From: Oceanispirochaeta sp.
Lineage (GTDB): Bacteria; Spirochaetota; Spirochaetia; DSM-2461
DNA length: 64,000 nucleotides
Assembly (NCBI GenBank): GCA_963666275.2
Contig: CAXXOA010000002.1
Span: 32,001-96,000, forward strand
Direction: 5' to 3'
Of the stretch, positions 4,570 through 33,187 are shown piece after piece. Position 1 is the first letter of the stretch. The number at the start of each line of letters is the position of its first letter. Position numbers and translations under genes: made by a program. Below the pieces are notes generated by a model that searched no databases, had not been told where the DNA came from, and was given only the letters and a program-made list of their open reading frames with translations.

Positions 4570-6264
4570 ATGAAAATGAAAGTAATGATCAGAGCCTTAC
4601 TCTTGGTAATGATAGCAGGGCTGTTCACTACAGCCTGCAGTCTGCTCTCACCCAATGAAGATCCCTCAGAGAGGTATTCTGAGATGTCCGTGCTTCAGGG
4701 TGACAGCGTATTGGAAAGCGGCAGCGGCGCCTATGCGTTTCAGACCACCATGCTTTCGACAGAAAAAATCGCGGAGTTTACCATCAGCAGCAGCGGAGAC
4801 AAGGCGCTGAAACTGACAGGCACCCCCCTGGTGGAGATATCCGGAACCGATGCGGCCCTGTTCAGTGTGACCCAGCCGGGAGACGCCGAGATAGCCACGG
4901 ACTCTGCACTGACATTTCAGATTACCTTCAAACCCGACAGTGTGGGATCCAAAAGTGCGGTGGTCTCGATTGTAAACAACTCTGGAACAAGCCCCTACAG
5001 CTTCAGTATCAGCGGCCTTTGCTCCACCAATGTGGTGACAGCACCGACTGCAAGCCTCACAGAGGGAGCCTATAAGGCTGATGAGATCTCCAACCTGACA
5101 CTGTCCAGTACCACGGCGGGAGCCTCTATCCGCTACACTCTGGACGGAAGCGATCCCGATGAAGTGACAGGAATTCTTTATGACGGGAATGTGGACCTGA
5201 CAGGTCTGTTCGGCGCTCATATGAAAGCGGTAGCCTATAAGGCGGGCATGGTAGCCTCAAACCTGCTGGAAGCGGATTATACCTACAAATCCAATACGAC
5301 GTCTCTGGTAGACGATGCAAAAAATGCCTCATCCTATACAATAGATATGATAATAGACAGTTCAGACAAGATACATATTGCCTATACGTATCAATACAGT
5401 TACTTGAAATATCTTACCAATGAAAACGGGGCATGGAACAGCTCCGTCCTTAATAATGAAGACTCAGAGAATCCCTCGCTGGATATTGACAGCAACGGAA
5501 AGATTCATATTTCCTACTGGTATTTTAACTCAAGGGATCTACGCTATATGACGAATGCCTCAGGCTCCTGGAGTAAGAGTACGGTTTACTCCGATGAGGA
5601 TTCAGGGCGGTACAACAATATCCATATCGACAGTAACGGATACCCCATGGTTCTTTTTAATAAAGATTATACCAGTGATTCCATAATGTTTTCCCAGTTC
5701 GATGGATCAGTTTGGCATAGCGAAACGCTCGCAAATCCCAGTAATTTGTTTCATCTCAATTCAGTGCAGGACATGAACGGGATGCTCCATGCAGTCAGTG
5801 ACATTCAAAGCAGCATCAAATACTTTACCAATACTTCCGGAGCCTGGACCTCTGAAACAGCTTTTGGTCTGGGGGGAACCGGAGCCTACATGACAATGGC
5901 ACTGGCAGTGGATTCAGATGGGTATGTCCATATTGTATGTGATAACATCTCAAAAGAGACCTATTATGTAAGCAATAAAGGCGGATCCTGGAACAGCACA
6001 AAGATCGGAACAAGCAACGCTATAAATAATATAGATAATCCCCTCTCCATTATTAATGATCCTGAAGATAAGCAGAGGATCGTCTATTTTGATAGCACCG
6101 GAAAGATGATCATGGCCGACAATGGAACCGGATCCTGGGTCAAAACCACCCTGGAAGCAGACACAACCGAACCGTCCTGCCCCAACCTGGGCTATGACTC
6201 ACAGGGCAAACTGCATATTGTTTATCAGGATAACGGCTCCATCCGCTACCTGACATCCTGGTAA
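4570..6264 (+). CDS. Surface lipoprotein: Ig-like (choice-of-anchor D-like) domain, Fn3-associated/chitobiase C-terminal domain, C-terminal beta-propeller
   Basis: Lipobox FTTA-C; FQITFKP...G.KSA; IRYTLDGSDP motif; about seven D-S-x-G-K-x-H-I-x-Y repeats with Y-x-T-N-x-S-G-x-W; AGGAG RBS. Confidence 0.75.
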   Translation: MKMKVMIRALLLVMIAGLFTTACSLLSPNEDPSERYSEMSVLQGDSVLESGSGAYAFQTTMLSTEKIAEFTISSSGDKALKLTGTPLVEISGTDAALFSVTQPGDAEIATDSALTFQITFKPDSVGSKSAVVSIVNNSGTSPYSFSISGLCSTNVVTAPTASLTEGAYKADEISNLTLSSTTAGASIRYTLDGSDPDEVTGILYDGNVDLTGLFGAHMKAVAYKAGMVASNLLEADYTYKSNTTSLVDDAKNASSYTIDMIIDSSDKIHIAYTYQYSYLKYLTNENGAWNSSVLNNEDSENPSLDIDSNGKIHISYWYFNSRDLRYMTNASGSWSKSTVYSDEDSGRYNNIHIDSNGYPMVLFNKDYTSDSIMFSQFDGSVWHSETLANPSNLFHLNSVQDMNGMLHAVSDIQSSIKYFTNTSGAWTSETAFGLGGTGAYMTMALAVDSDGYVHIVCDNISKETYYVSNKGGSWNSTKIGTSNAINNIDNPLSIINDPEDKQRIVYFDSTGKMIMADNGTGSWVKTTLEADTTEPSCPNLGYDSQGKLHIVYQDNGSIRYLTSW

Positions 6265-6987: not shown

Positions 6988-7908
6988 ATGAGCCGCATAT
7001 ACCAGGTCAAAGAAAATGAACTCTACCTTGTGGGCAAGGCAATGGCCTCCCCTCTCCGTATCAATATACTCAAGCTCCTGGAGCACCATCCTCTGAACAT
7101 AAACCAGATTGCCGAGCATCTGGATATCCCCCAGTCCTCCTGTGTTTTCCACATCAAGATACTTGAAAAAGCAAAACTCATAGAGACCGAAATCCTATCT
7201 GCAGCCAAGGGAACCCAGAAGATCTGCCATCTGGCCTATGATGAAATCGTTTTTCCTCTGAGGTCAAAAAAGAACTTCACCGATGACAACATCATGATCT
7301 CGGATATCCCCGTTGGCATGTACAGCAACTACAGCATTCAGCCCCCCTGCGGGATTCTGTCTGAAACCGGAGCCATTGGTTTTATCGATCAGGAGGATTC
7401 TTTTGATGATCCCCTGCGGAGTTCGGCCGGGCTGCTCTGGTTTACCCGGGGATTCTGTGAATACAGGTTTCCCGATACACGGATTTTCCCCGGCAGAAAA
7501 ATCAGAAGTATTGCTGTTTCCATGGAACTATGCTCTGAATTTCCCGGGCACAACAACAACTGGCTTTCCGATATAACCCTGTGGTTCAATGAGTTTGAGG
7601 TGGGCACATGGCGAAGTCCCTCAGACTGCGGTGGAGAGTACGGGACTCTGACTCCCCGCTGGTGGAGTATCGACAATACCCAGTTCGGTTTTCTTAAAAG
7701 CTGGAAGATAACCCGGTCAGGATCTTTTATTGATGAGGAAAGAGTGTCCGACATATGTCTGGCTGATCTGGACCTGGAAAGGGCAGATTACTCCACAATA
7801 CGGATAGGCATCAAAGACGATGCCGAGTATCAGGGAGGAATCAATCTCTTCGGAAGGGGATTCGGTAATCATGCTCAGGATATCCGGTTCACCATAGAAT
7901 TCCAGTAG
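6988..7908 (+). CDS. ArsR-type HTH transcriptional regulator with large C-terminal domain (type often near arabinose/furanose genes)
   Basis: KAMASPLRINILKLL...NINQIAEHLDIPQSS HTH; C-terminal PCG...SE.PG..NNW.SDIT...TPRWW...TQFG.LK. Confidence 0.8.
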   Translation: MSRIYQVKENELYLVGKAMASPLRINILKLLEHHPLNINQIAEHLDIPQSSCVFHIKILEKAKLIETEILSAAKGTQKICHLAYDEIVFPLRSKKNFTDDNIMISDIPVGMYSNYSIQPPCGILSETGAIGFIDQEDSFDDPLRSSAGLLWFTRGFCEYRFPDTRIFPGRKIRSIAVSMELCSEFPGHNNNWLSDITLWFNEFEVGTWRSPSDCGGEYGTLTPRWWSIDNTQFGFLKSWKITRSGSFIDEERVSDICLADLDLERADYSTIRIGIKDDAEYQGGINLFGRGFGNHAQDIRFTIEFQ

Positions 7909-7988: not shown

Positions 7989-9008
7989 CTAGCTCTGCAT
8001 GGCTCTCTTTTTTGCGATTTTTGTGGAATTCCTGGATAGGTAGTTCTGGATCAGTATAAAAACCATAACCAGCAGTCCCACCAGGATCTGTGCCCACCAC
8101 TCCCGGAAAGAGGAGATATAGGAAGGAAGCTTGAAAACGAGCCCGTAGATCAGGACTCCGAAGAAGCTTCCCACCACGTACCCCGAGCCGCCGGAAAGGA
8201 GAGTTCCCCCGATCACCACTGAGGCGATCACATCCAGCTCCAGTCCCAGAGCGTTATGGGGTTTTCCCGAAGCCATATGTATCGTAAAGACGACCCCTCC
8301 CAGGGCACTGAGGAATCCGTTTATTGTATAGATGGCGATCTTTGACTTTGTCACGGGAAGCCCCATCATGACGGCGGATTTTTCGTTCCCGCCGATGGCA
8401 TAGACTGTCCGTCCGAACCGGGTGTAGCGGCCCACGAGAATCCCCGCAATAAGGACTATGAAAAAAATCATGACATAAAGGCTCAGATTGGCAGGCCCCA
8501 TTTTAATCCCTGTCTTTTTCATAAAGGAAATGAAAGGGTCATTCTGAATACTGAGGGTTCCCTGATGGATCATGTAGGCCAGCCCCCTGAGAAGGAACAT
8601 ACCCACAAGAGTCACAAGGAAGGGGGGAAGCTCAAAGAGTGTAATCAGACTGCCGAAGAGGAAGCCCATCAAGATACCAATGGCAAGGCAGATCAGGATC
8701 GAGATCCAGGAAGGCATCATATAGACATTGGTCAGTTTGGCTATAAAGATCGAAACAAAGGCCACCATGGATCCCACAGACAGATCAATTCCGCCCGAGA
8801 GAATGACAAAAGTCATACCCACCGCAATGATTCCGATATAGGCTATGGCTTTGAAAATGTTCACAAAGTTGTAGACTGACAGAAAACCCGGAAAAATCGT
8901 CGATGCCGTTCCGTACATGATTATGAAAATCAGGATAGTCGTCAGGATGGGTATGTTATTGACCGTAATATGGCTTCCGAGATTTTTAAAAGATTTAGCG
9001 AGCTTCAT
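7989..9008 (-). CDS. yjfF: Sugar ABC transporter permease (YjfF-like)
   Basis: GMTFVILSGGIDLSVGS, GRTVYAIGGNEKSAVMMGLPV, ELDVIASVVIGGTLLSGG; start placed at MKLAK (9008), overlapping the upstream stop. Confidence 0.85.
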   Translation of the reverse strand: MKLAKSFKNLGSHITVNNIPILTTILIFIIMYGTASTIFPGFLSVYNFVNIFKAIAYIGIIAVGMTFVILSGGIDLSVGSMVAFVSIFIAKLTNVYMMPSWISILICLAIGILMGFLFGSLITLFELPPFLVTLVGMFLLRGLAYMIHQGTLSIQNDPFISFMKKTGIKMGPANLSLYVMIFFIVLIAGILVGRYTRFGRTVYAIGGNEKSAVMMGLPVTKSKIAIYTINGFLSALGGVVFTIHMASGKPHNALGLELDVIASVVIGGTLLSGGSGYVVGSFFGVLIYGLVFKLPSYISSFREWWAQILVGLLVMVFILIQNYLSRNSTKIAKKRAMQS

Positions 9009-10077
9009 TGACGGGCTCCTCATCGGCTGTTGATTTTTTTTGATTCTTTGCCTTGTAGTTTGATATTTTTGCCCGGAACTGATCCGACTGGATAAGTGCC
9101 ACAAATATAATGACCACCGCTTTGAATACAAGTGAGTACTCATAGGGCCAGCGCTGGAAGTACACGGTAGTGGTCAGACTCTGAATAATCAGGGCACCTA
9201 TAAGGGACCCGACGAGAGTAAACCGGCCTCCATTGATGGAACCACCGATGATGACGGCTGCAATAGCGTCCAGTTCTATCATAAACCCCGTATTGTAGGG
9301 ACTTGTGCTGGATTCGCCCGACACATGTACCAAACCGGCCACTCCCGCCATCAGAGCGCAGAACACATAGGTTCCCACAGTGATGGTCTTTGTCCTGATG
9401 CCGACAAAGCGGGATGTCTTTCTGTTTTCACCTGTTGATTCGATAAAAAGACCGATGGCCGTCCTTTTTGTTCCGATCAGGGTCAGAGCAAAAATGGCAA
9501 GGGCGATCCAGACCGGGATAGGCATAGCCAGGAAGTACCCTGTACCGATTTTGGTAAAAGGAACGCCGTAGTAGGTGGGAGTCTGCCCTTCAACCATAAG
9601 GACGGCCAGGCCTCTTGCCGTATACATCATAATCAATGTGGCAATGATTGGCTGAACCTTCACCACCGCCACCATAATCCCGTTGATAAGCCCCAGAAGC
9701 ATCACGATCAGCAGGGGAATCAGGATAATCACAGCCATATGAGGCTGGGGATCAAGCACAGGCATTCCCTGGAGGTATCCCGGACGGATCAGAAGGGCAG
9801 CCATTGCCCCCGCTACAGCCATTATAGAACCGACGGACAGATCAATTCCGCCGGTGGCATAGACCAGGGTCATCCCGGAAGCCAGGATAATCAGCCTGGC
9901 TCCATTATTCAGAATACTGATAAGGTTTCCATGTAAACGCCCCTCTTCCATCATAGAGACCTGAAAGAACTCAGGAGAGATGATAAGATTGAGTAAAAGG
10001 ATTCCTATAAGCCCCAGGAGAGACCAGAGGATCCTTTTCTGTATGGGGTCACTGTTGTTTAATAATTTATCTTTCAT
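8995..10077 (-). CDS. ytfT: Sugar ABC transporter permease (YtfT-like)
   Basis: GMTLVYATGGIDLSVGS, VQPIIATLI, GLFIESTGEN, ELDAIAAVIIGG. Confidence 0.85.
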   Translation of the reverse strand: MKDKLLNNSDPIQKRILWSLLGLIGILLLNLIISPEFFQVSMMEEGRLHGNLISILNNGARLIILASGMTLVYATGGIDLSVGSIMAVAGAMAALLIRPGYLQGMPVLDPQPHMAVIILIPLLIVMLLGLINGIMVAVVKVQPIIATLIMMYTARGLAVLMVEGQTPTYYGVPFTKIGTGYFLAMPIPVWIALAIFALTLIGTKRTAIGLFIESTGENRKTSRFVGIRTKTITVGTYVFCALMAGVAGLVHVSGESSTSPYNTGFMIELDAIAAVIIGGSINGGRFTLVGSLIGALIIQSLTTTVYFQRWPYEYSLVFKAVVIIFVALIQSDQFRAKISNYKAKNQKKSTADEEPVNEAR

Positions 10078-10094: not shown

Positions 10095-11596
10095 TCAGGA
10101 ATCCGCAATGGTCTGCATCACAGATTGCTCATCAATTTCCACACCGTTTAATTCATTCACGATTTTTCTGTCTTTCAGAACTGCCACTCTGTTTGAAATA
10201 CGGACAACCTCTTCCAGTTCCGAGGAAATAAAGACGATGGAAAGGCCTTTGTTCTTTAGATCCAGAATGGCTTTCTGGATTTCAATTTTTGCTCCCACAT
10301 CAATCCCTCTGGTAGGTTCATCAAGAATCAGAATGTCAGGATTGGCCACCAGCCAGCGGGCCAGTATGCATTTCTGCTGATTACCGCCGCTCAGCGATTT
10401 TATGCTTGTATGAATGTCAGGTGTCTTGATTTTAAGGATATCCACATATTTCCGGGCAATACTGTCCCGTTCAGCCGGCTCATTAATCGGAATGTTCCCT
10501 TTTTAGCCTGCTGAGCCAGAATAATATTGTCTCTGACACTGAGTTCCTGCAGAAGCCCCGACTCTTTCCTGTCTTCCGGGCAGTATCCCATACCATGGGA
10601 AATGGCATCTTTCGGATTCCGAATGACCCCTTTCTTCCCTTTTATATAAAAATCCCCTTTATCGGGACTAATAATGCCGTACATGATATTTGCCACTTCG
10701 GTTCTTCCGGAACCGAGTAAACCGGCCAGGCCGAGGACTTCCCCTTTATTGAGATTCAGACTGAATTCTTCAATGTAGCCTTCCTTCCGGATATTCCTGA
10801 GAGAGAGGAGTTCTTCCTTTTCCCTCTGCTCTTCATTTGTCCACAGGGATTTATCCAGCTGCTTCAGTTCCTGCCCGAGCATATTTGAAATTAAATCTAT
10901 CTTTGAAATATTCTTTGTCTCATGCAGACCGACAAACTGCCCGTCTCTCAGGACAGTAATCCGATCAGTAATTTCAAACACCTGATCAAGAAAGTGGGTG
11001 ATAAATATGATGCTGATCCCCTGCCCTTTCAGCTTTCTCATAACCTTAAATAACTGATTGACTTCCTGCACATCCAGGCTGGATGTGGGCTCATCCAGAA
11101 TAAGAACTTTGGCACTGATATCCAATGCTCTGGCAATCGAAACCATCTGCTGAATGGCAACGGAATAGGTATTCAACGGCTGGGTAACATCGATATTGAG
11201 ATCCAGCAATGCCATGGCCTTCCGGGCCCTTTCATTCAGATCTTTCCAGTCGATCCCTTTCAGAAAACCGCTCCTGCCCGGCTGCCTTCCGAGAAAAATA
11301 TTCTCTGCAACAGACAGCATGGGGATCAGGTTGACTTCCTGATAAACAGTACTGATTCCCTTCTGAACAGCCTCATTGGGCGAATGAAAATCGATGATGT
11401 CCCCGTCAAAGGCAATGTCCCCGCTGTCTCTTCTGTAGATGCCGGTGATTACCTTGATAAGAGTGGATTTTCCGGCACCATTTTCGCCCATCAGGGCATG
11501 GATCTCACCCTCATCCAATGAAAAATCAACATTGGAGAGAGCTTTCACTCCGGGGAAGTTTTTGTCTACGTTTCTGACGCTAAGAATTTCTCCCAT
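10095..11596 (-). pseudogene. ytfR: Sugar ABC ATP-binding protein (YtfR-like, two NBDs), frameshifted near 10475 (real lesion or sequence error)
   Basis: ORF 10400-11596 has GENGAGKS, LILDEPT, GLLGSGRTE; ORF 10095-10445 has LSGGNQQK and ILDEPTRGIDVGAK; adding one G gives a continuous ...MSR-AERDSIARKYVDILKIKT. Confidence 0.85.
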
Positions 11597-11619: not shown

Positions 11620-11644
11620 AGGGACCTCCTCGATAGAGGTCCCT
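11620..11644 (-). other. Intercistronic stem-loop after the binding-protein gene
   Basis: AGGGACCTC-N7-GAGGTCCCT. Confidence 0.55.
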
Positions 11645-11671: not shown

Positions 11672-12625
11672 TCAGAAACCACCGGTGGGGTGATCCTTGT
11701 AATTGGTAGTGTCATACAGACTGTCGGGAGTAATAATGTACTGATCAACAGGTTTGCCTTCGATAGCCGCGAGAAGAGATTCAAATCCGAGGGGTCCCAG
11801 AAGAGGGCTGCATTCTACAGTGGCATTCAGATCGCCTCTTTCCATGGCTTCAAAAGCAGCCTTAATGGCATCAACAGAGATGATTTTCACATCCGAACCG
11901 GGTTTAATTCCAGAGGATTTCAGGGCTTCGATGGCACCGAGAGCCATACCGTCATTGTGAGCATAGATAACATCAAAATCTACGCCGGCGGCAATCCAGG
12001 CTTCCACAACCTGACGTCCTTTATCCTGGCTCCATTCTCCGGTTTTGGATTCTACAACTTCGATGCCGTCATAGGTATCGATAACTTCCATAAAACCCTT
12101 GCTGCGGAGAATGGCGGGATCTGCAGCGGGATCTCCGAAGAGTTCAACAACTTTTCCATTTCCATTCAATGCGTTGGCCACCCATTTTCCGGCTTCTCTG
12201 CCTTCAAAAGCAAAATCGGAAGAGATCTGGGTAACCCAGAGATCTTCGGGAGAATCCAGTCCTCTGTCCAGAAGGACAACAGGGATACCCGCAGCTTTTG
12301 CTTCGCCCAGAACTTCATCCCAACCGCTTCTGGTCTGGGGAGCCAGTAAAATACCGTCTACTTTCTGTGCAATGAAATCCCGAATGGCGGAAATCTGACC
12401 AGCCTGATCTGTGACTGACAGCTTCAGGTCTATACCGAGCCTTTCAGCTTCCTGCTGGACTGAATTTGTCTCGGTTGTTCTCCAGGGGCTGTCCTCCTTG
12501 ATCTGCGCAAACCCCACTTTCAACTGACCATTGCCCTTTTCCTGAGCTCCTCCGGCAAATACCGTTGAAGAGAGAGCCAGAAGCATGGAGATCACCAGAA
12601 CTGAAGAAACCAATACTTTTCTCAT
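11672..12625 (-). CDS. ytfQ: Sugar ABC substrate-binding protein (YtfQ-like)
   Basis: VGFAQ...WRTTET, QISAIRDFIAQKVD, GWDEVL.EAK.AGIPVVLLDR, AHNDGMALGA, VECSPLLGP; start MRKV at 12625 with AGGAG RBS. Confidence 0.85.
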   Translation of the reverse strand: MRKVLVSSVLVISMLLALSSTVFAGGAQEKGNGQLKVGFAQIKEDSPWRTTETNSVQQEAERLGIDLKLSVTDQAGQISAIRDFIAQKVDGILLAPQTRSGWDEVLGEAKAAGIPVVLLDRGLDSPEDLWVTQISSDFAFEGREAGKWVANALNGNGKVVELFGDPAADPAILRSKGFMEVIDTYDGIEVVESKTGEWSQDKGRQVVEAWIAAGVDFDVIYAHNDGMALGAIEALKSSGIKPGSDVKIISVDAIKAAFEAMERGDLNATVECSPLLGPLGFESLLAAIEGKPVDQYIITPDSLYDTTNYKDHPTGGF

Positions 12626-12661
12626 AAGAATTCTCCTTTGATTGAAATAATGTTTTTTAAT

Positions 12662-12679
12662 ATGCAAATGACATACCAA
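12662..12679 (-). promoter_or_regulatory. Sigma-54 (-24/-12) promoter of the ytfQ-type operon
   Basis: Minus strand TTGGTATGTCATTTGCAT = GG-N10-GC with TTGCA -12 box, about 36 bp upstream of the start codon; AT-rich tract upstream. Confidence 0.8.
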
Positions 12680-12899
12680 TTGTTTACTAAATAAAATTAA
12701 AACTTTCTATTTCCATATATTGCAATATATTAAAAAATTCCCTATTTTTCATATCGAAAATATTGGATACAAATAAGCCGGTTTTTACCCGCTAAATACA
12801 CATTATGCCACAGGAATCGTATAGCTATTACACAAATTCTGCTTTTTAAGATAAGACTTGACAAGTCCATGGAGTGATGCAAAAATTTTTCCACCCTTT

Positions 12900-14192
12900 A
12901 TGAAAAATAAAATATTAATCATTGATGATAATGAAAAGCTCTGTGAGAGCCTGGAAATGAATCTGATGCACCTTGGATACAGATGCGACTACAGAACCAA
13001 CGGCCCGTCATCCCTGAAATTCCTGGATGAGGAATCCCCCGATTTAATACTGCTGGATTTGTCACTGGGCGAAGAGAGCGGATTGGAAATACTGGAATGC
13101 ATAAAGGGTAAGAACGCCTTTATTCCTGTTATAATGATAACAGGATTCGGCACGATTCATACAGCAGTTCAGGCCATTAAGGCCGGAGCGGTCGACTATA
13201 TTCAGAAACCCCTGAATTTTACACATCTTCTCAAGAAAATTGAAAACACTTTGAAAACAGAATCTGTAGTCATGCCCGAATCCTTCATAATTCAGAGTCC
13301 TGAAATGAAGAAGCTCATGGAAAAGGCGGAAAAGCTGGCTAAAACGGATTTTCCCATTCTGATTACCGGAGAGAGCGGTACCGGGAAAGAACGGCTGGCC
13401 CATTTCATTCATGAGAATTCCGCCAGAAAGGATGAACCACTTCAGATCATCAATTCTGCAGCGTTTCCTGAAAGCCTGCTGGACAATGAGCTTTTCGGCC
13501 ATGAAAAAGGAGCCTATACCGGAGCGGATGCCCGGTTTATGGGTATTTTTGAGCGCTCTGACAAAAGCTCCCTGTTTATGGATGAAATTGGAGATATGAC
13601 CCTGCAGACCCAGGTGAAAATACTCAGGACCCTTCAGAACAGTGAAATCCGGAGAATCGGCGGGAACGAGGTCCGGAAGGTGGATGTCAGATTTATCGGC
13701 GCGACAAACAGAAATCTGCTGGAGATGATGCAGAACAAGAGATTCCGGGAAGATCTCTATTACAGGCTCAGCACGGCGGTTCTCCATGTCCCGAGTTTAA
13801 AAGACCGAACCGAAGATATCATCCCTCTTGCGGAGTATTTTCTCCGCAGCAGTTTCAAAGAAAGGAATATGACCCTGACTGAGGAGGCCCGGGAAGGACT
13901 CCTCCGCTATCAGTGGCCGGGGAATATACGTGAGCTTAAAAACTCCCTCCAGTATGCAGGAGCCCTGGCTTCGGAAAACAGAATACTTCTCTCTGATTTC
14001 CCCGGAAATATCCAGACGGCTGTAAACAGGGATTCCGCTCCGGTCCAGACCCTCGAAACAAGGGAGAAAGAGGCCATACTCAGCGCCCTTGAGCAAGCGA
14101 ATCACAATAAGACCGAAGCGGCGGAACTGCTGAATATAAGCCGGAAAACTCTTTATAATAAAATAGCCAAATACGGACTGATCAATGAGTGA
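12900..14192 (+). CDS. Sigma-54-dependent response regulator (NtrC/AtoC family)
   Basis: REC domain (ILIIDD, LILLD), GESGTGKE, ELFGHEKGAYTGA, LFMDEIG, FREDLYYRL, WPGNIREL, Fis-type HTH; ATG 12900 preferred because the TTG at 12858 lies in a TTGACA box. Confidence 0.93.
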   Translation: MKNKILIIDDNEKLCESLEMNLMHLGYRCDYRTNGPSSLKFLDEESPDLILLDLSLGEESGLEILECIKGKNAFIPVIMITGFGTIHTAVQAIKAGAVDYIQKPLNFTHLLKKIENTLKTESVVMPESFIIQSPEMKKLMEKAEKLAKTDFPILITGESGTGKERLAHFIHENSARKDEPLQIINSAAFPESLLDNELFGHEKGAYTGADARFMGIFERSDKSSLFMDEIGDMTLQTQVKILRTLQNSEIRRIGGNEVRKVDVRFIGATNRNLLEMMQNKRFREDLYYRLSTAVLHVPSLKDRTEDIIPLAEYFLRSSFKERNMTLTEEAREGLLRYQWPGNIRELKNSLQYAGALASENRILLSDFPGNIQTAVNRDSAPVQTLETREKEAILSALEQANHNKTEAAELLNISRKTLYNKIAKYGLINE

Positions 14193-15966
14193 TACAGCTC
14201 TGGTGGCATTGAGAGACGTCTCTCTGGTAATACAAAGTAGGAAAATTATAAGTTCTCTCAATATGGATATCTATCCCGGACAGATCCATGGACTCATCGG
14301 AGACAGGGGATCCGGAAAAACATCCATCGGCACCCTCCTGTCTCTGGATACGATTCCCGACAGGGGAAAAGTTTTCTGGAGAGGCGAAAAGATCGATCAC
14401 TACTCCTACAGGAGCCTGCAGAATCCGGGAATCCAGATGATCTATCAGGACGGAGGGCTTCTGGGCCATTTTACTGTAGCGGAAAATCTGTTCCTTCCCG
14501 AAAAGATTCTTCGCCCTTTTCCGTTCAACCGCAGAAAAAAAATGCAGAACGCCGCGGGACAGCTGATACGGGAGTACGGATTTGATATCGATCCGAACCA
14601 TCTGTTCATAGATCTGACCATGTCGGAACAGGTTGTGATTGAAATCCTGCGGTGCATTATCAAAGAGCCTGACTTTCTTGTGATTGATGAAGCCCTTGAA
14701 AAGCTCAACGGGGAAGATTACGAGAAGATTGTGACTGTCCTGAAAAAAGAATCCCGGGCGGGATTGAGTATTTTGTGTATCAGCCACAGGATTGATGATA
14801 TCTATGGTTTTGCCGAGACAGTATCGGTGGTCAGGAACGGATCCATCCTTCTGACGGATTCCACAAAAAAGATTGACCGCCTGAACCTGATCAAGCTCTG
14901 CTATACCCAGGTAACCCGGAACAAAAAATCGGAAGATGTGAATAAGGAGTTCTATCAGATCCTCAGATACAATGAGGCGATCCTGAAGAGCCTTCCCATT
15001 TCTCTTGTTGTGGTGGATGAAAAAAACAAGATCAAAATGATCAATGACCAGGGGCTGCTCTTTTTTAAAGTCGGCAGTGATGAGTATCTGAATCTGGATC
15101 TGAATACAATCATAAAGGATGAAGAGTCGTTCCGCCGTATCCAGGACAGCATTAACAGGGAAGCCACCCTCTATAACCTGAAAATTGAGAAAACCATCTG
15201 CAATATCAAGGTTTTCCCTATATTTGACGGGAAATTCTCCATCGGAAACATCATCATTCTGGAGGATATCTCAGAGCAGGAGGAGATGCGCCACAGGCTG
15301 AACCTCTCGGAAAACCTGGCATCCCTGGGGCTTCTGGCGGCCGGAGTGGCCCATGAGATAAACAATCCCCTGGAGATTATCTACAACTATCTGAATTTTC
15401 TGAAAATGGATCCGGAAGAACAGCAGCAGAAGAAGGTCGTCCGGCTTCTGGAAGAGGAGATGGACGGCATCAAGTACATCGTTTCCAACCTCATGTCCTT
15501 TTCGGGAAAACCCGAAGCCAACTTCGAGGACTTTGACCTGAACCAGCTTGTGAAACAGACCTTTTCCCTGTTGAAGCCCTCTGCAAAAGAGCGGAACATT
15601 GACTGCAGGTTCCTCACATCCCGGGAGGAGATTATTGTGGGGGCCAGTAAAATAGAGATTAGGCAGGTCCTTCTGAATCTCATTAAAAACAGCTTCGAGG
15701 TACTGAAATCAGACGGCTGTATCGAGGTGGAAACAGAGCAGGATTCCCAGTCCACCATCCTGAGAGTCAGAGACAACGGCCCGGGCATCCGGGAAGACAA
15801 TATCAGGGACATCCTCCTCCCCTTCTATTCCAACAAGAAAGAAGCCAGAAACATGGGGCTGGGTCTGACTGTCAGCTACAATATAATTAAAAAATATGAG
15901 GGAGAATTCTCCTTCAATAACCTTCAGGATCGGGGATGCGAGTTTGTAGTGAAGCTGCCCCGGTAG
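14185..15966 (+). CDS. ABC-ATPase domain / PAS-like / histidine kinase fusion protein
   Basis: aa 1-240 NBD (GDRGSGKT, IYQD, FTVAENLF, LVIDEA, ISH); PAS-like middle; AGVAHEINNPL H-box, QVLLNLIKNS, DNGPGI, MGLGL; no evident TM segment; overlaps the RR stop. Confidence 0.88.
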   Translation: MSDTALVALRDVSLVIQSRKIISSLNMDIYPGQIHGLIGDRGSGKTSIGTLLSLDTIPDRGKVFWRGEKIDHYSYRSLQNPGIQMIYQDGGLLGHFTVAENLFLPEKILRPFPFNRRKKMQNAAGQLIREYGFDIDPNHLFIDLTMSEQVVIEILRCIIKEPDFLVIDEALEKLNGEDYEKIVTVLKKESRAGLSILCISHRIDDIYGFAETVSVVRNGSILLTDSTKKIDRLNLIKLCYTQVTRNKKSEDVNKEFYQILRYNEAILKSLPISLVVVDEKNKIKMINDQGLLFFKVGSDEYLNLDLNTIIKDEESFRRIQDSINREATLYNLKIEKTICNIKVFPIFDGKFSIGNIIILEDISEQEEMRHRLNLSENLASLGLLAAGVAHEINNPLEIIYNYLNFLKMDPEEQQQKKVVRLLEEEMDGIKYIVSNLMSFSGKPEANFEDFDLNQLVKQTFSLLKPSAKERNIDCRFLTSREEIIVGASKIEIRQVLLNLIKNSFEVLKSDGCIEVETEQDSQSTILRVRDNGPGIREDNIRDILLPFYSNKKEARNMGLGLTVSYNIIKKYEGEFSFNNLQDRGCEFVVKLPR

Positions 15967-24166: not shown

Positions 24167-25153
24167 ATGAAGAAGATTTTGTGTATGCTGATTGTATTAT
24201 CAGCGCTGGGTTCGGTAACTATGTTCGCCGGCGGACAGACCGACTCGAATTCGATTAAAGTCGGAATTGTGAACCTGCCGCCCGAAGAATCCGGTTACAG
24301 ACAGGCCAATGTGGACGCCATGAACAGTGTCTTTTCAGCAGAGAAAGGCTATGACGCAAAACAGACCAATACCGGAGACAACAGTGAGCAGATCGCCGCA
24401 GCCAAAGGGTATATCCGGGACGGAGTGGATTATCTTCTCATTTCGGCAGCCAATGCATCCGGATGGGACGACACCCTGAAGTCCGCAAAAGAAGCAGGTG
24501 TAAAAGTTATCCTTTTCGACCGCCTGATCGATACAAGTGAATCAAACTATCAGGCAGCCCTGGTTTCCGATATGGCTTATGAAGGCAAAATGGCAACAGA
24601 TTGGGTTCTGAACCTGGGTCTGAATGAAATCAATCTGGTTCTGATCCGGGGCCAGTTGGGATCTGCCGCAGAAATCGGCCGGAGCAGCGCCGTCCTCGAG
24701 GCAGCTGCCGCCAATAAACTCAATATCGTAGCGGATGGAACAGGTGGAGACAGCTGGAGCCTTGAAGAAGCCCGGAAAGTGGTGGAAGCCGCCATTGCGG
24801 CAGGCAAAGATTTCAACGTGATCTACGCTCAGAATGACGGTATGGCCCAGGGAGCTGTTCAGGCTCTTGAAGCAGCCGGTATCACCCACGGTAAAGACGG
24901 TAAGGTCAAGGTTATCGGTTTTGACTTCAACCGCTTCGCCCTGAGGAACGTACAGGAAGGTTACTGGAACGCCAATATGCAGTGTAATCCCCGCCAGGCA
25001 GCAGAGATCGCCAGGTGGATCGAAAGCGGTTCGCTCCCCAGCGGAATCCAGTATCAGGAAGAACTGCTGGTTACTACAGACACAATATCCGATGAAATTA
25101 TCGACCAGTGGGGAATCAATGCCGATCCCGGAAAAGGTGTGATAACCAGGTAA
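24167..25153 (+). CDS. Sugar ABC substrate-binding protein (RbsB/YtfQ superfamily)
   Basis: ESGYR, GWDDTL..AKEAGVKVILFDR, YAQNDGMAQGA, CNP; AAGGAGG RBS. Confidence 0.88.
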   Translation: MKKILCMLIVLSALGSVTMFAGGQTDSNSIKVGIVNLPPEESGYRQANVDAMNSVFSAEKGYDAKQTNTGDNSEQIAAAKGYIRDGVDYLLISAANASGWDDTLKSAKEAGVKVILFDRLIDTSESNYQAALVSDMAYEGKMATDWVLNLGLNEINLVLIRGQLGSAAEIGRSSAVLEAAAANKLNIVADGTGGDSWSLEEARKVVEAAIAAGKDFNVIYAQNDGMAQGAVQALEAAGITHGKDGKVKVIGFDFNRFALRNVQEGYWNANMQCNPRQAAEIARWIESGSLPSGIQYQEELLVTTDTISDEIIDQWGINADPGKGVITR

Positions 25154-25268
25154 TCGCGATCATTGCACGATTTTACCTATCGGAACTTGTATGTGCGGTG
25201 CGCTGTGCGGGAATCTTTCGCGTACAACGTACCGCAATGAATTTGAAAAGAACCAAGGAGGATCCGGA

Positions 25269-26771
25269 TTGGAGCCTTTAAACATACTAGAAATGGAAGG
25301 CATCAGCAAATCGTTTCCCGGGGTACAGGCACTGGATGCCGTTGACTTCTCGCTCCGTAGGGGTGAGATCCATGCCGTGATGGGCGAAAACGGTGCGGGC
25401 AAGTCAACCCTGATAAAGGTCATAACCGGAGTCTACGAAAAGGACACCGGCCGTATTGTCCTGGATGGAGAGCCGATTCACTTCAAATCGCCCCAGGAAG
25501 CTCAGAACTCGGGGATAGGCACAGTGTATCAGGAAATAACCCTATGCCCCAATTTGACCGTGGCGGAAAACATGTTCATCGGCCGCGGGAACAGCCCCTT
25601 CATCACGTGGAAACATATGAACGAAAAGGCGGCCGGGCTGCTGGACTCTCTCGGGATTCCCGCCAGTCCGACCCAGGAACTGACCAGCTGTTCCATCGCC
25701 ATCCAGCAGATGATAGCCATTGCCCGGGCAGTCGATATGGACTGCAAAATACTCATTCTGGATGAGCCGACCTCCTCACTGGACGATGACGAAGTGAATA
25801 AACTCTTCATCCTCATGAGAGAGCTGAAAGCCCGGGGAGTGGGAATCATCTTCATAACCCACTTTCTTGAACAGGTCTATGAGATAACAGACAGGATCAC
25901 GGTCCTCCGCAATGGACAGTTGATCGGTGAATATGAAACTTCATCTCTTCCCCAGATCGAACTCATTGCGAAAATGATGGGAAAAAACCTGGATGATGTC
26001 ACAAAGATAAAAAAGCACGAGCCTCTGCTCTCCGGATCAGATGCCCCTGTTTACGAAGCAAAAACTCTTTCCAGCGACGCCGGGGTTCGGCCCTTCGACT
26101 TCACCATACAAAAAGGAGAAGTGAACGGGTTCGCAGGTCTCCTGGGCTCCGGACGCAGTGAATGTGCACGCGCCATATTCGCTGCCGACAAGGTGACAGG
26201 GGGCGAAATCAAAATGAAAGGCAGGAGCTTAAAGATTAGGACCCCCCTGCAGGCCATGAAACAGGGGATCGGATACCTGCCTGAGGACAGAAAAAGGGAC
26301 GGGATTGTGGATGAACTTTCAGTCCGGGACAATATCATTCTGGCTTATCAGGTTCTGAAGGGCTTTTTCAAGCCCCTCTCGCAAAAGATGGCTGAAGAAT
26401 TTGCAGATGAGTTTATTGAAAAACTTAAAATCAAAACGCCTTCCTCGGAGACCCCGATCAAGTCGTTATCCGGCGGCAATCAGCAGAAGGTTATTCTGGC
26501 CCGCTGGCTGCTGACCCACCCTGAGTACCTGATCCTCGATGAGCCCACAAGGGGGATAGACGTGGGGACCAAAGTGGAGATTCAAAAACTGGTGGTCAAA
26601 CTCGCCGAAGAGGGAATGAGCCTGACCTTTATATCTTCTGAAATTGACGAAATGATCCGAACCTGCTCCCGCATGATCGTCATGAAAGACCGGGAAATTG
26701 TAGGGGAGCTCAGTGGAACGGATATAACGGAAAACGATATCATGCAGAAAATTGCCCAGGGAGGTGAGTAA
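25269..26771 (+). CDS. Sugar ABC transporter ATP-binding protein (two NBDs)
   Basis: GENGAGKS, LDEPTSSL, GLLGSGRSE, LSGGNQQK; TTG start at 25269 follows AAGGAGG. Confidence 0.93.
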   Translation: MEPLNILEMEGISKSFPGVQALDAVDFSLRRGEIHAVMGENGAGKSTLIKVITGVYEKDTGRIVLDGEPIHFKSPQEAQNSGIGTVYQEITLCPNLTVAENMFIGRGNSPFITWKHMNEKAAGLLDSLGIPASPTQELTSCSIAIQQMIAIARAVDMDCKILILDEPTSSLDDDEVNKLFILMRELKARGVGIIFITHFLEQVYEITDRITVLRNGQLIGEYETSSLPQIELIAKMMGKNLDDVTKIKKHEPLLSGSDAPVYEAKTLSSDAGVRPFDFTIQKGEVNGFAGLLGSGRSECARAIFAADKVTGGEIKMKGRSLKIRTPLQAMKQGIGYLPEDRKRDGIVDELSVRDNIILAYQVLKGFFKPLSQKMAEEFADEFIEKLKIKTPSSETPIKSLSGGNQQKVILARWLLTHPEYLILDEPTRGIDVGTKVEIQKLVVKLAEEGMSLTFISSEIDEMIRTCSRMIVMKDREIVGELSGTDITENDIMQKIAQGGE

Positions 26772-26773
26772 CA

Positions 26774-27850
26774 ATGCGTAATGTGAAAGCAAAGTTCTCT
26801 CATCTCTTCCTTCCCCTTTCCGTGATGGTGCTGCTCATAATTATAAACCTGATCAAGGGTGCTGATTACTTCACCATCACAGTGGTTAACGGAGCCTTTT
26901 ACGGCAACATACCGAACATCCTGTTCGGGGCGTCCGAGCTTGTGATTCTGACCATCGGCATGACCCTGGTAACAGCGGCGTCCCAGGGCCAGGACATCAG
27001 CATCGGAGTAGCCTCCACCATTACATCCGCAGTCTTTGTCATGGTCGTCCTGAAATCCGGCGCCGATGTCACCCTTATAACCATACTGGGGGCGTTTCTC
27101 ATAAGCTGCGTTGCCGGGCTTCTTGTGGGAGCCTTCAACGGAGCTCTGGTTTCGGTATTCAATGTTCAGCCCATGGTAGCAACACTCATACTTTTTACCG
27201 GAGGCCGGTCCATCGCCTTCATGATCGATGGCAAACTGTCTCCCATACTGGCGAATGATATCTCGAACCAGATAGGGACAGTCATACCCGGAGTGCCGAT
27301 ACAGACTCCCATCATCCTGACCGCCCTCTTTATTGCCATCGTCGCCGTCGTGCTCAAGACGACCAATCTCAGGCTCTATGTGGAATCCGTCGGCATCAAT
27401 CCGAATGCAGCGCGTTTAAACGGCATCAATCCGAAAAGAATCATATTCCTTACATTTCTGATTATGGGGATCTGCACGGCAATTGCGGGATTCATCGCCG
27501 TGAACAAAGCGGGCCGCCATGACAGTGTCAATCTGCTCAAGCTGATTATGATGGATGCGATCCTTGCCGTGGCCATCGGGGGAAACTCTCTCGGGGGCGG
27601 CAGATTCAGCATCACCGGAGCAATTATAGGAGCCTATACCATTGAGGTTTTGAACAGGACCTTGCTCCGACTGGAGGTTTTGCCCGAAACAATTCCGGCG
27701 TTTAAAGCGGTCTTCATCATCATCCTCATGGTGGTGGCGTCTCCCGTGGTGAGAGCTTTTGCCAGAGACACTATTGACAAGGTCAGGGCCCGGGGAGTTT
27801 TCAAAATAAATTCCAAGGGCACCCCAGACCCCACTTTAAAGGAGGAGTAG
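26774..27850 (+). CDS. Sugar ABC transporter permease (YtfT-like)
   Basis: GMTLV...GQDISIG, VQPMVATLI, DAILAVAIGG. Confidence 0.9.
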   Translation: MRNVKAKFSHLFLPLSVMVLLIIINLIKGADYFTITVVNGAFYGNIPNILFGASELVILTIGMTLVTAASQGQDISIGVASTITSAVFVMVVLKSGADVTLITILGAFLISCVAGLLVGAFNGALVSVFNVQPMVATLILFTGGRSIAFMIDGKLSPILANDISNQIGTVIPGVPIQTPIILTALFIAIVAVVLKTTNLRLYVESVGINPNAARLNGINPKRIIFLTFLIMGICTAIAGFIAVNKAGRHDSVNLLKLIMMDAILAVAIGGNSLGGGRFSITGAIIGAYTIEVLNRTLLRLEVLPETIPAFKAVFIIILMVVASPVVRAFARDTIDKVRARGVFKINSKGTPDPTLKEE

Positions 27851-27851
27851 A

Positions 27852-28928
27852 ATGGAATCCAATACCAAAACCAAATCAAAACTGTCGAATTCCAATCTTC
27901 TGTTTATCATTGCCTCAGGAATTTTTGTCCTGATGTATCTGGCAGCGATCATAAGCTTTCCGGGCAGTTTCCTGCAGTTTCAGACTTTTTTTGATCTGTT
28001 CAGCCTGAATGCGCCCCTCATCATCATGACCCTGGGTTTATGTATCGTTATGATCGGAGGAGGCATAGACATTTCCATCGGTTCGGTATGCGGACTGGTG
28101 ACCATGGCCAGTGCGGTATATCTTGAATCGGGAATGGGCAATATAGGGGGGGCGATTCTTCTCTCTGTCGGGATCGGCATTGCCTTTGGTGTTCTGCAGG
28201 GATATCTCATAGCCTATCTTGAGATACAGCCCTTCATCATCACCCTATCGGGGCTGTTCCTGGGAAAAGGACTCCTCACGACCCTCCACAAAGATCCTAT
28301 CAATGTCACTATGGCGCAGTTCATCTCCCTGCGGGATTTCAATTTTGTGGTTCCCTGGCTGGGCCGGGTTAACAGACTGGGGATTTTCATCCCTCTGAAG
28401 ATCAAACCCGGCTTTATCCTTGTGGTTGTCCTGGTGGCCTTTTTTGCTGCGTTTATGAAATGGTCCCGATTCGGACGCAACGTCTATGCAGTGGGAGGGA
28501 ATGAATACAGCGCCAGGATGCTGGGTATCAATGTTAAAAGGACCAAATTTTTTACCTATGTGATTTGCGGACTCACCGCGGGCATATCCGGTTTTGTGTT
28601 CATCATGACCACGGGAGCCGGGAATATCGGAAACGCAGTGGGCTTTGAAATGAAAGCCATAGCCTCGGCGATCATCGGCGGTACCCTGCTCAACGGCGGC
28701 GTCGGGAACCTGATTGGAGCGCCCATTGGCACATTGACCCTGCTGATCATAAATGAACTGATCCGGGCCGGCGGAGTCCAGTCGAACTATCAGGCGATCA
28801 TCAGCGGGCTGTTGCTCTATCTTTTCATTGTCCTTCAGAGTGTGGTCATGGCCATGCGGGATAAAGGGCAAATCAAAATGGCCCTCCCCCCCTGGCTCAC
28901 AGGCAGCAGAAAAGCTGTGGACCAGTGA
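27852..28928 (+). CDS. Sugar ABC transporter permease (YjfF-like)
   Basis: GGIDISIG, QPFIITL, FGRNVYAVGGN, IASAIIGGTLL. Confidence 0.9.
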   Translation: MESNTKTKSKLSNSNLLFIIASGIFVLMYLAAIISFPGSFLQFQTFFDLFSLNAPLIIMTLGLCIVMIGGGIDISIGSVCGLVTMASAVYLESGMGNIGGAILLSVGIGIAFGVLQGYLIAYLEIQPFIITLSGLFLGKGLLTTLHKDPINVTMAQFISLRDFNFVVPWLGRVNRLGIFIPLKIKPGFILVVVLVAFFAAFMKWSRFGRNVYAVGGNEYSARMLGINVKRTKFFTYVICGLTAGISGFVFIMTTGAGNIGNAVGFEMKAIASAIIGGTLLNGGVGNLIGAPIGTLTLLIINELIRAGGVQSNYQAIISGLLLYLFIVLQSVVMAMRDKGQIKMALPPWLTGSRKAVDQ

Positions 28929-28932
28929 AAAA

Positions 28933-30528
28933 TCAGTCCGAAGTCCGGTTCGACGATCTGAACCGGCTTGGCGACACTCCGGCATTCTTTCGGAAGATAT
29001 AACTGAAATAATGGGGATCGCTGTAACCGACTTCGAAGGCGATGTCAGAACACTTCATCTGATTGTTTATGAGGAGCTGCTTGGCTTTGCCTATACGGAC
29101 TGAAGTCAGATACTCTATGAACGTCTCTCCCGCCTCCTGTGAAAATATCGTACTGAAATGGTTCGGGCTGACATTGACATGGGAGGCAACGTCGTAGAGC
29201 GACAGATCCTGCCTTGCAAATTCCATATCGATAAATCTCTTTGCTTCCAGGATCCTCAAATGGTGCTTCGTATGAATCTGGGAATCCCTGTAGGCGATCC
29301 ATTTTTCAATCATCCTGAACGCTCTTTCTGAAAACGTCTCATCCGTAAAAGACACTTCGGCAATATGGTTCCGGTCGTAGGATTCGGGAACCACATCCCG
29401 GGGATTTCCCTGAAGATCTTCAATCAGCAAACACACCGAATCTATGATGTCGCAGTAGGCAATGGCAAAATAGCTTGAATTGATCGAGCCTCTCGATTTT
29501 TCACCGGCAATATCCATATACTGGGCTATGATCTCCGGGATATCCTCCAGGGAAGCGAAGCGGATCCTTTCGGTCAGATGATCTCTCTCCGAGGGAAGAG
29601 GTCCATCGGTTCTGCTCCACTTCATGTCGCCCGCGCTGATGATGTTCTTTTTCCCCGTAAGCCTCATATAACGGATCGCTTTATCCGCATCCGTATAGGA
29701 GTGGATGATTTCTCCAATGTGTTCCACTATCGAACCGATTCCGATAGCCAGTTGGCATTGGCTGTTCCTTTCGGTCTCGAATTTAATCCCCTGTGCCAGG
29801 GTATAAATGATGTCATCCTTCGTCTCTTCTGAAACATTTTTGGCCAGGATTATAAGCTTTTCCATGCTCTGGGGAAACAGAAGAAAATCCTGACGGTTCT
29901 GCAGCATAGCCTCGATAATCTCCCTGACCAGAGCAAACTGGGAGTAATCCCCGGAAACTGTGAATATTTCGACAGCCATGATCACATAGCCGTTGGCGAT
30001 CAGATCGATGTCGGCTTTCCGGGCCATTTCTATGGCATCGACAGTATCGATCTGTCCTGTGATGAGGTCGCATAACCATTTCTCCCGGAGGATATCCTCG
30101 GAGGTCTGGATCCTCTGTTTCAGGTTTTCGATACTGGCCAGCCGAAGCTTTTCTTTTTCGATCTCCCTTGTCACCTTCTCCAGGGATGAGATCATATCCT
30201 GCACGGACACAGGCTTGAGAAGATACTCATCGACGCCGATGGAAATTGCCTGTTTGGCATACTCGAACTCATCATGCCCGGACAGTATGATGATCTTGAT
30301 CCATGGCTGATCCCTCTTGATGATGCGTGCCAGAGCGAGGCCGTCCATAAAAGGCATTTTTATATCCGTAATAAGAATGTCGGGCTTGATCTCCCGAAGC
30401 GCGGGCAGGGCTATTTCACCGTCCGGAGCCTCTCCCGCAAGGGTAAAGGGTGTGGTCTTCCAGGGGATGCTGTTCCTGATACCTTCCCTGGTCACAATTT
30501 CATCCTCTACTAAAAAAACGCTATACAT
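28933..30528 (-). CDS. Two-component response regulator with AraC output (YesN type)
   Basis: VFLVEDE, ILITDIKMPFMDG; C-terminal VSPNHFSTIF, VGYSDPHYFSYIF. Confidence 0.93.
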   Translation of the reverse strand: MYSVFLVEDEIVTREGIRNSIPWKTTPFTLAGEAPDGEIALPALREIKPDILITDIKMPFMDGLALARIIKRDQPWIKIIILSGHDEFEYAKQAISIGVDEYLLKPVSVQDMISSLEKVTREIEKEKLRLASIENLKQRIQTSEDILREKWLCDLITGQIDTVDAIEMARKADIDLIANGYVIMAVEIFTVSGDYSQFALVREIIEAMLQNRQDFLLFPQSMEKLIILAKNVSEETKDDIIYTLAQGIKFETERNSQCQLAIGIGSIVEHIGEIIHSYTDADKAIRYMRLTGKKNIISAGDMKWSRTDGPLPSERDHLTERIRFASLEDIPEIIAQYMDIAGEKSRGSINSSYFAIAYCDIIDSVCLLIEDLQGNPRDVVPESYDRNHIAEVSFTDETFSERAFRMIEKWIAYRDSQIHTKHHLRILEAKRFIDMEFARQDLSLYDVASHVNVSPNHFSTIFSQEAGETFIEYLTSVRIGKAKQLLINNQMKCSDIAFEVGYSDPHYFSYIFRKNAGVSPSRFRSSNRTSD

Positions 30529-31993: not shown

Positions 31994-31994
31994 G

Positions 31995-32993: not shown

Positions 32994-33187
32994 TTTTTTT
33001 AACCAGGACCGGAGGGATGCCAGTACATGATACCTGACATTTACCCGGAACACAACAAATTATTGCATTGAAGAAGGCCTGAGGAGATGAGCATAAGTGA
33101 TGAAGAAGGGAGGCGGCAGCCGGAAGGCAGGTGGATATGAAATTCAGAGATAGAATAGAGTGAAATTTCCATTTCAACAATAAGATT

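Follow-up and report, generated by a model that had tools for sequence, protein, structure and literature searches.

What might a soluble histidine kinase detect when its sole N-terminal input is the nucleotide-binding domain (NBD) of an ATP-binding cassette (ABC) protein, and of the very type that bears the active ATP site in tandem sugar ATPases? The question is raised by a gene at 14185–15966 on the forward strand of a 64,000-nucleotide stretch of Oceanispirochaeta sp. DNA (assembly GCA_963666275.2, contig CAXXOA010000002.1, positions 32,001 to 96,000), which is called the window throughout and is numbered from its first letter. Sequence comparison indicates that a regulatory role for this kinase, exerted together with a sigma-54 activator on the adjoining CUT2 sugar importer, is well supported, and that a mechanism in which the membrane part of the importer acts as receptor is probable.

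Architecture and ancestry of the fusion kinase

The kinase is encoded by a single uninterrupted open reading frame (ORF) of 593 aa, the parts of which are as follows.

14185..15966 (+): soluble histidine kinase, 593 aa, consisting of a CUT2-type ABC NBD, helical linker, PAS, HisKA (His390) and HATPase (ORF, Pfam, NCBIfam, AlphaFold model, run contigs)
14185..14916 (+): ABC NBD, residues 1–244, with Walker A GDRGSGKT, Q88, D168–E169 and H201, an inherited degenerate signature, a kinase-specific D-loop ALEKL and a conserved last helix, 231–243
14917..15270 (+): linker helix EFYQILRYNEAIL, highly conserved, and PAS (residues about 269–362)
15271..15966 (+): kinase core, comprising the dimerisation and histidine phosphotransfer domain (DHp) with its H-box and the catalytic (CA) domain

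Pfam matches place ABC_tran at residues 24–171 (1e-18), HisKA at 381–440 and HATPase_c at 490–592; PAS_9 at 273–364 is a weak match below cut-off, and PAS scores above cut-off in several homologues. In NCBIfam the best match for the NBD is the sugar ATPase YtfR. In the AlphaFold model (mean predicted local distance difference test score 86.9) the ABC NBD is followed by a linker helix, PAS, a DHp made of a long pair of helices, and CA; solved structures match the model only piecewise, as ABC ATPases and as PAS-kinases separately. Hydropathy over 19 residues peaks at 1.35, and no transmembrane segment is found. An earlier inspection of the letters and their ORFs (the sequence-only reading) had described an NBD, a PAS-like region and HisKA/HATPase in one frame without a transmembrane helix, a description that Pfam, the model and the hydropathy plot bear out, with PAS as its weak point; each of the NBD motifs it named is present in the ORF, as GDRGSGKT (Walker A, 39–46), IYQD (Q-loop, 86–89), LTMSEQ (signature, 144–149), LVIDEALEKLN (Walker B and D-loop, 165–175) and ISH (H-switch, 199–201). 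The kinase half is that of a class I histidine kinase of the AtoS/NtrB-like kind, having HisKA with a phospho-accepting His and HATPase_c with N and G boxes, both above the Pfam cut-off. The H-box His is kept in 238/238 homologues, and H390, N502, D530, G532 and G534 are invariant across 150 sequences.

The fusion is genuine and conserved. Because contigs from three sequencing runs (of one sample) span the gene without differing letters or gaps, and because hundreds of independent homologues exist, an assembly artefact was ruled out; the same evidence contradicts the possibility, conceded by the sequence-only reading, that homologues are always two separate genes. ABC_tran and kinase domains occur together in 119 of the 120 best homologue matches, and two homologue searches together returned 238 distinct proteins of 560–700 aa with a complete NBD. 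Weak searches for longer and shorter architectures gave 0/329 candidates and 1/24 candidates, respectively, the latter on a 1.1-kb contig.

The ancestry of the fused domain was traced on a tree of 158 domains, built by a quick method with support from the Shimodaira–Hasegawa-like approximate likelihood ratio test (SH-aLRT). All 41 kinase NBDs fall in one clade (SH-aLRT 96), nested in a clade with the N-terminal NBDs of CUT2 ATPases (SH-aLRT 99) and separate from C-terminal NBDs and other ABC ATPases. On the evidence of this tree the kinase NBD is a descendant of the N-terminal NBD of tandem CUT2 sugar ATPases. Repeated fusions, each drawn from the neighbouring ATPase, were rejected in view of the single clade and the lack of any excess likeness to the kinase's own ATPase.

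Across 116 kinase–ATPase pairs, the kinase NBDs retain the Walker A Lys (97%), Q-loop Gln (97%), Walker B Asp (99%) and Glu (98%) and switch His (95%). In the wider set of 238, Walker A GK is kept in 230, the Gln in 206, the Glu in 193 and the His in 189, with all four in 142 and LSGG in 0. Judged as a transport motor, the domain thus has its Walker A, Q-loop, Walker B and switch His, and has neither a second NBD nor an intact LSGGQ. The signature is equally degenerate in the kinase NBD and in the N-terminal NBD of the transport ATPase, the C-terminal NBD of which carries LSGGNQ in 97%; a study of RbsA and NupO reports the same asymmetry between N- and C-terminal signatures (PMC11466899). Since the N-terminal NBDs of ordinary CUT2 ATPases share it, the degenerate signature appears to be inherited and not the mark of a kinase-specific disabling, and degeneration through the kinase role was accordingly rejected.

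In comparison with the tandem ATPases RbsA, NupO and YtfR (PMC11466899), the kinase is alike in its intact Walker A and B, Q-loop and His and its degenerate signature, and differs in having no C-terminal NBD to supply LSGGQ and in being fused to a PAS-kinase. Further differences are kinase-specific: the Walker A Asn is replaced by His (93%; Arg in the window's kinase), the D-loop PTSAL of transport ATPases becomes ALEKL, and a conserved last NBD helix runs into EFYxLLKYNEAIL. An A-loop aromatic residue is absent from the window's kinase and its YtfQRT-linked relatives. The sequence-only reading had noted a degenerate signature and a degenerate D-loop; the D-loop is kinase-specific, the signature is not, and the argument drawn from the latter is weak.

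The activator, the importer and the promoter between them

The genes and signals next to the kinase, from its partner regulator to the far end of the divergent operon, are these.

12900..14192 (+): NtrC-type response regulator with ATG start, REC with phospho-Asp, sigma-54 AAA+ with GAYTGA loop and Fis helix-turn-helix (HTH) (Pfam)
12858..12886 (+): sigma-70-like promoter match just upstream of the regulator, TTGACA-17-AAAAAT with extended TG; a consensus match only, the region-wide count of which is near chance
12818..12834 (−): candidate activator site, an imperfect copy, TGT-N11-ACG, of the family motif TGT-N11-ACA (one mismatch)
12663..12679 (−): sigma-54 -24/-12 box TTGGTATGTCATTTGCA, toward the importer operon
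11672..12625 (−): periplasmic sugar-binding protein, YtfQ-like, below the equivalog cut-off
11620..11644 (no strand assigned): stem-loop between the binding-protein gene and the ATPase gene
10095..11596 (−): tandem CUT2 ATPase, YtfR-like, with an apparent frameshift after 10474 that is an assembly error
8995..10077 (−): permease, YtfT-like (BPD_transp_2)
7989..9008 (−): permease, YjfF-like (BPD_transp_2)

That the kinase overlaps an NtrC-type regulator gene, and that the pair is divergent from a ytfQRT-yjfF-like operon with a -24/-12 promoter, was correctly seen from the letters alone: the 3' end of the regulator gene and the start of the kinase share 8 nt, and the box lies at 12679–12663. The operon itself extends to 7989, beyond the coordinates first given for it. 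The kinase is evidently co-transcribed with the sigma-54 activator, which has the REC, AAA+ and Fis HTH of an enhancer-binding regulator, its loop being a GAYTGA variant of the GAFTGA type. Of 88 family regulators, 87 have the phospho-Asp; the sigma-54 contact loop reads GAYTGA in 56/88 and GAFTGA in 14/88.

The importer resembles the galactofuranose system YtfQRT-YjfF, but the best matches of all four genes lie below the NCBIfam equivalog cut-offs (YtfQ 266/510; YtfR 503/850, for a truncated ORF; YtfT 274/535; YjfF 335/363), too low to assign it a sugar. In the window the YtfR-like ATPase is split into 10400–11596 and 10095–10445, and it is the sole short ORF among the 39 CUT2 ATPase ORFs of the genome. 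In all three runs a further base follows 10474; the assembly is one base short there, the split is an artefact of that error, and the transporter has an intact ATPase of its own. A broken transport ATPase at this locus was rejected.

Linkage was scored at 211 loci, representing 158 kinases distinct at 90%, and in a second set of 42 more divergent kinases in which near-copies were kept (loci L271–L284 were mapped and not counted). The regulator lies directly upstream of the kinase in 149/152 assessable cases and in 41/41 of the second set; the three remaining cases reflect ORF calling or frameshifts, the regulator being visible on the map. Binding protein, permease and ATPase are all found within 8 kb at 78/81 well-flanked loci, and at 26/31 in the second set. 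Within the window's genome, 3/3 fusion kinases lie near a CUT2 ATPase, as compared with 1/70 other kinases, 0/14 other sigma-54 activators and 12% of random positions. The sequence-only reading had looked to conserved linkage with sigma-54 regulators and CUT2 permeases for its support and to the lack of any linkage to sugar ABC permeases for its undoing, and on both counts these figures favor it. No adaptor class recurs among the neighbors of the fusion loci.

The promoter evidence runs in the same direction. A -24/-12 box, scored at no less than 7/9 against a consensus, faces the importer at 85/106 loci and occurs on the opposite strand at 0/106; among the 39 CUT2 operon starts of the genome it is found at 3/3 that are linked to a fusion kinase and at 0/36 others. 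The perfect TGT-N11-ACA motif stands upstream at 77/98 loci, against 3.9 expected from shuffles. The window's operon thus carries what a sigma-54 target should, with a -24/-12 promoter, an upstream palindrome (imperfect here) and a sigma-54 gene in the genome. From the counts of linkage, box and palindrome together it is a strong inference that the kinase–regulator pair activates the adjoining importer. The kinase very probably phosphorylates the activator, which would then open the -24/-12 promoter, as is known of these protein families. Kinase lineages also stay with a single type of transporter (the NBD tree needs 28 label changes, where the minimum is 25 and shuffled labels give 69), and 26 transporter clusters, the nucleoside type (BMP) among them, are linked to fusion kinases.

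Other features of the window bear on the setting. A second YtfQRT-YjfF-like operon (24167–28928, +) lacks a -24/-12 box. Facing it (33053–28933, −) are genes for a binding protein, a HAMP/His_kinase kinase and an AraC-type regulator, which form a conventional counterpart of the fusion system within the same window. Systems made up of these three kinds of protein, the kinase being a membrane one, probably detect sugar by way of the binding protein. They are likewise found beside a sugar importer, as at 28933–33053, and their kinases, with HAMP and His_kinase, are of the membrane-sensor type, whereas the fusion kinase has no membrane part. The protein encoded at 4570–6264 (564 aa) begins like a lipoprotein and contains a CHB_HEX_C/Fn3-associated domain; its C-terminal half is repetitive and has no Pfam match. 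At 6988–7908, convergent with the importer operon, is the gene for an ArsR-type HTH regulator with a long C-terminal part, relatives of which recur at three loci.

The membrane part of the importer as a possible receptor

There is reason to think that this two-component system not only induces a CUT2 importer but would also use the membrane part of that importer as its receptor. It seems moderately probable that the NBD docks on the permease in the slot of the transport ATPase. The paired NBDs of a kinase dimer would meet the permease dimer at its two coupling helices; docking of a sugar-loaded binding protein on the outside would move these helices and so alter closure of the NBD pair, and the conserved last NBD helix, the linker helix and the PAS dimer would relay the change to DHp. 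Such a receptor complex would coexist with the working YtfR complex. Because neither side has an intact LSGGQ, the kinase NBD pair should hydrolyse ATP poorly and should not drive transport; ATP binding would probably tune closure and be dispensable in some lineages. Stated in full, the proposal stands at a slightly better than even chance: a kinase-borne NBD would fill the motor slot of a modular receptor in which the binding protein and permease form an extracellular sugar receptor without a dedicated sensor domain, and one ancestral fusion would have been adapted to about 25 kinds of importer, with the motor abandoned in certain lineages or a second permease copy gained that serves sensing alone.

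A kinase that is wholly soluble and has a PAS domain could instead do its sensing in the cytoplasm. The PAS domain would bind the imported sugar or a metabolite, or the NBD would read ATP/ADP, with the NBD serving as a dimerisation or localisation module and the importer being the target and not the receptor. This account is unlikely, yet it has the good retention of cis ATP-site residues in the main clade (n=116) on its side, as well as the few members that adjoin catabolic or unrelated genes with no importer, and the lack of detectable covariation between NBD and permease that is described below. It leaves unexplained why a CUT2 NBD input should accompany a CUT2 importer target over 26 transporter clusters. 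PAS distances have no advantage over those of the kinase core in following the binding protein, and ATP/ADP would be an identical signal for all paralogues that cannot give sugar specificity. ATP-site residues, moreover, are lost in several lineages. The kinases of loci L243 and L244 have no Walker A Lys and keep the V-x-E-N-L helix and the importer linkage, and divergent members elsewhere lose the Walker A Lys, the Gln, the catalytic Glu or the switch His; these losses, with the missing A-loop aromatic residue here, make ATP/ADP sensing, which the sequence-only reading had offered as its alternative, less likely. That ATP-site residues erode in divergent members while the domain and its linkage stay gives docking circumstantial support.

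Loci that have lost the cognate ATPase bear more directly on docking at the permease. Among orthologous loci, L232, L237 and L271 have binding protein, ATPase and permease in order, and L238 and L239 (genomes G409 and G411) have binding protein and permease with the ATPase missing, the regulator and kinase being kept. An orthologue of the missing ATPase was not found elsewhere in the G409 and G411 genomes, where the best match is 45–46% as against 64% for the G410 orthologue. At a dS of about 0.8, the ratio of nonsynonymous to synonymous substitution (dN/dS) in these loci is 0.016 for the orphan permease, 0.046 for the binding protein and 0.029 for the kinase; by this measure all three are under purifying selection after ATPase loss. 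Cytoplasmic sensing does not explain such selection on a permease without an ATPase. In addition, an extra permease stands tail-to-tail with the kinase, with no ATPase nearby, at 8/125 loci (six of them well flanked, in two clades), an arrangement seen for 0/56 permeases of the window's genome; where compared, the extra copy is 50–75% identical to the operon copy, and it has no strong sigma-54 box.

A further account would have the kinase report transport itself. Its NBD would pair with the YtfR C-terminal NBD, which has an intact LSGGNQ, or would bind the YtfR–permease complex, and turnover would be read as BceS reads BceAB. The kinase NBD is exactly the half-site that a C-terminal NBD completes, the ATPase is kept at nearly all loci, and the raw partial correlation of the kinase NBD is highest with the C-terminal NBD (0.30 and 0.23, against 0.10 and −0.06 for the N-terminal NBD). 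That correlation is gone after double-centring (0.12, as compared with 0.09 for the core), however, and the kinase D-loop and Walker A carry family-specific changes. The N-terminal NBD of YtfR, covalently in place, would have to be displaced, and the kinase is under purifying selection where the cognate ATPase has been lost. Turnover sensing is accordingly doubtful, and quite improbable on present evidence.

Several observations weigh against docking at the permease. Kinase NBDs are no closer to the N-terminal NBD of their own ATPase than to others (z 0.25–1.7), and permease-facing positions, mapped from MalK contacts, show no significant excess likeness to the own ATPase (random-set p 0.10–0.30) and vary more in kinases than in ATPases (entropy 2.44 vs 1.77). 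A mirror-tree comparison of NBD and permease gave a partial signal of 0.27, which after removal of rate effects fell to 0.12 as compared with 0.11 for the kinase core. The NBD tree tracks transporter type only two steps better than do the core or regulator trees. An intact transport ATPase of its own is retained at nearly every locus, that of the window included, which makes a dedicated receptor complex exceptional as far as gene maps show. The ATPase loss described above is probably one event, and the neighboring operon's ATPase could serve the orphan permease. No complete importer lies within 8 kb at L028, L101, L141, L233, L241, L248, L266 and L267. Since the permease and binding protein sit under the promoter that they would activate, basal expression must be assumed. 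A complex prediction of the NBD with YtfT and YjfF scored 0.05 (mark 0.32) and was counted neither for nor against. On the whole, the docking-side motifs are retained and covariation with the permease is not significant; the proposal of the sequence-only reading, that the kinase docks on the permeases in place of an ATPase, is plausible and draws circumstantial support from the ATPase-less loci.

It is very improbable that the NBD instead occupies and throttles, or modifies, the transporter while another input governs the kinase. An NBD poor at hydrolysis would compete with YtfR, and there is precedent in KdpD, the N-terminal domain of which phosphorylates and inhibits its own pump (PMC11018627). 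PAS is the only other input domain, though, and the rigid, conserved helix running from NBD through PAS to DHp suggests that signal flows into the kinase.

Individual gene maps vary in other ways. At L028:8735–13341 a permease and binding protein occur without an ATPase and the regulator is cut to 219 aa, which may reflect decay or a separate design. Operons at L059, L138, L187 and L230 include an extra binding protein–permease pair lacking its own ATPase, and at L105, L126, L127 and L129 a permease gene abuts the regulator–kinase pair in the same direction. At L266:4301–15940 the fusion pair is flanked by translation genes on one side and hydrogenase-like genes on the other (identified by eye), and no importer is close by.

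Relation to known systems, distribution and meaning

Transporter-fused kinases include the SLC5/STAC kinases CbrA, CrbS and RpuS. Ks-Amt5 is alike in joining a transport module to a kinase and putting it to use as a sensor (PMC5764959; PMC8534201); prokaryotic transceptors form a related comparison (PMC11109136). In both Amt-type and SLC5/STAC kinases a membrane domain is fused, whereas here it is a cytoplasmic motor domain, and the membrane receptor would be a separate product; by Pfam and hydropathy, a membrane transport domain is absent from the fusion kinase chain. In the BceAB-BceS-BceR module of Bacillus subtilis and Bce-type modules generally, the ABC transporter is required for kinase activation and its own operon is induced (PMC8534201; PMC6978683), and the proposal for the fusion kinase is alike in having a transporter-assisted kinase induce its own transporter operon. 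BceS, however, is a separate membrane kinase touching the transporter in the membrane, and the fusion kinase is soluble with its own ABC NBD; having no transmembrane segment, it is not the two-transmembrane, intramembrane-sensing kinase of that type, and its partners are a binding-protein-dependent sugar importer (BPD_transp_2) and a sigma-54 activator output, not a BceAB-type peptide-resistance transporter.

The PstSCAB-PhoU-PhoR/PhoB system similarly has an ABC importer that signals to a PAS-containing kinase controlling the importer genes, but it does so with a working ATPase, PstB, an adaptor, PhoU, and a membrane-anchored PhoR, where here the NBD is inside the kinase (PMC6978683). KdpD, too, is a histidine kinase that carries at its N-terminus a nucleotide-using domain with ties to the transporter under its control; it differs in being a membrane protein, in that this domain is an atypical serine kinase where the fusion kinase has an ABC NBD, and in targeting a potassium pump (PMC11018627). 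Because the kinase has no membrane part and its fused piece is a motor domain, it belongs to none of the transporter-assisted or transporter-fused classes compared.

Named records of the family are mostly from Spirochaetota, with others from KSB3/Moduliflexota and single records titled Planctomycetota, Opitutae, Smithellaceae and Bacteroidia. A homologue is also on record for Pseudodesulfovibrio indicus (WP_066806149.1). Occurrence is patchy: 23/38 genomes in the organism's own order and 12/301 in its phylum, 7/9 in the phylum of G359, 20/62 in the class of G362 and 1/301 in the phylum of G360 (G360 itself). The window's genome has three paralogues and other genomes up to six. The two further pairs of this genome (G000:C1:618155–625162 and G000:C3:156520–163492) each adjoin a complete CUT2 importer with a -24/-12 box, and genes judged by eye from their sequence to be dihydroxyacetone-kinase-like and RpiB-like come after the second. 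A comparison with plasmids gave no match. In the ESM Atlas, clusters of ABC_tran-GAF-HisKA proteins of about 830–850 aa, mostly from Actinomycetota, suggest a second form of the design, whether derived or of independent origin. For the homologues of the fusion kinase, automatic annotation gives names to both halves and no function, and no paper on an ABC-NBD histidine kinase was found in a literature search that covered few subscription journals; the architecture is conserved and apparently uncharacterised. No relative of the CUT2 permeases was found among solved structures.

The kinases and their activators make up a regulator family so far unrecognised in spirochaetes, KSB3/Moduliflexota and a class of Planctomycetota. 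Transporter-assisted signalling is known, and the path from transporter movement to kinase has been hard to study because the parts are separate. With the motor domain itself as kinase input, NBD closure driven by the permease could be monitored as phosphorylation or through promoter output, and, if the docking proposed here is true, the mechanics of CUT2 sugar importers would become directly testable, a plug-in route to sugar biosensors may be opened, and a transporter would have been turned into a receptor.

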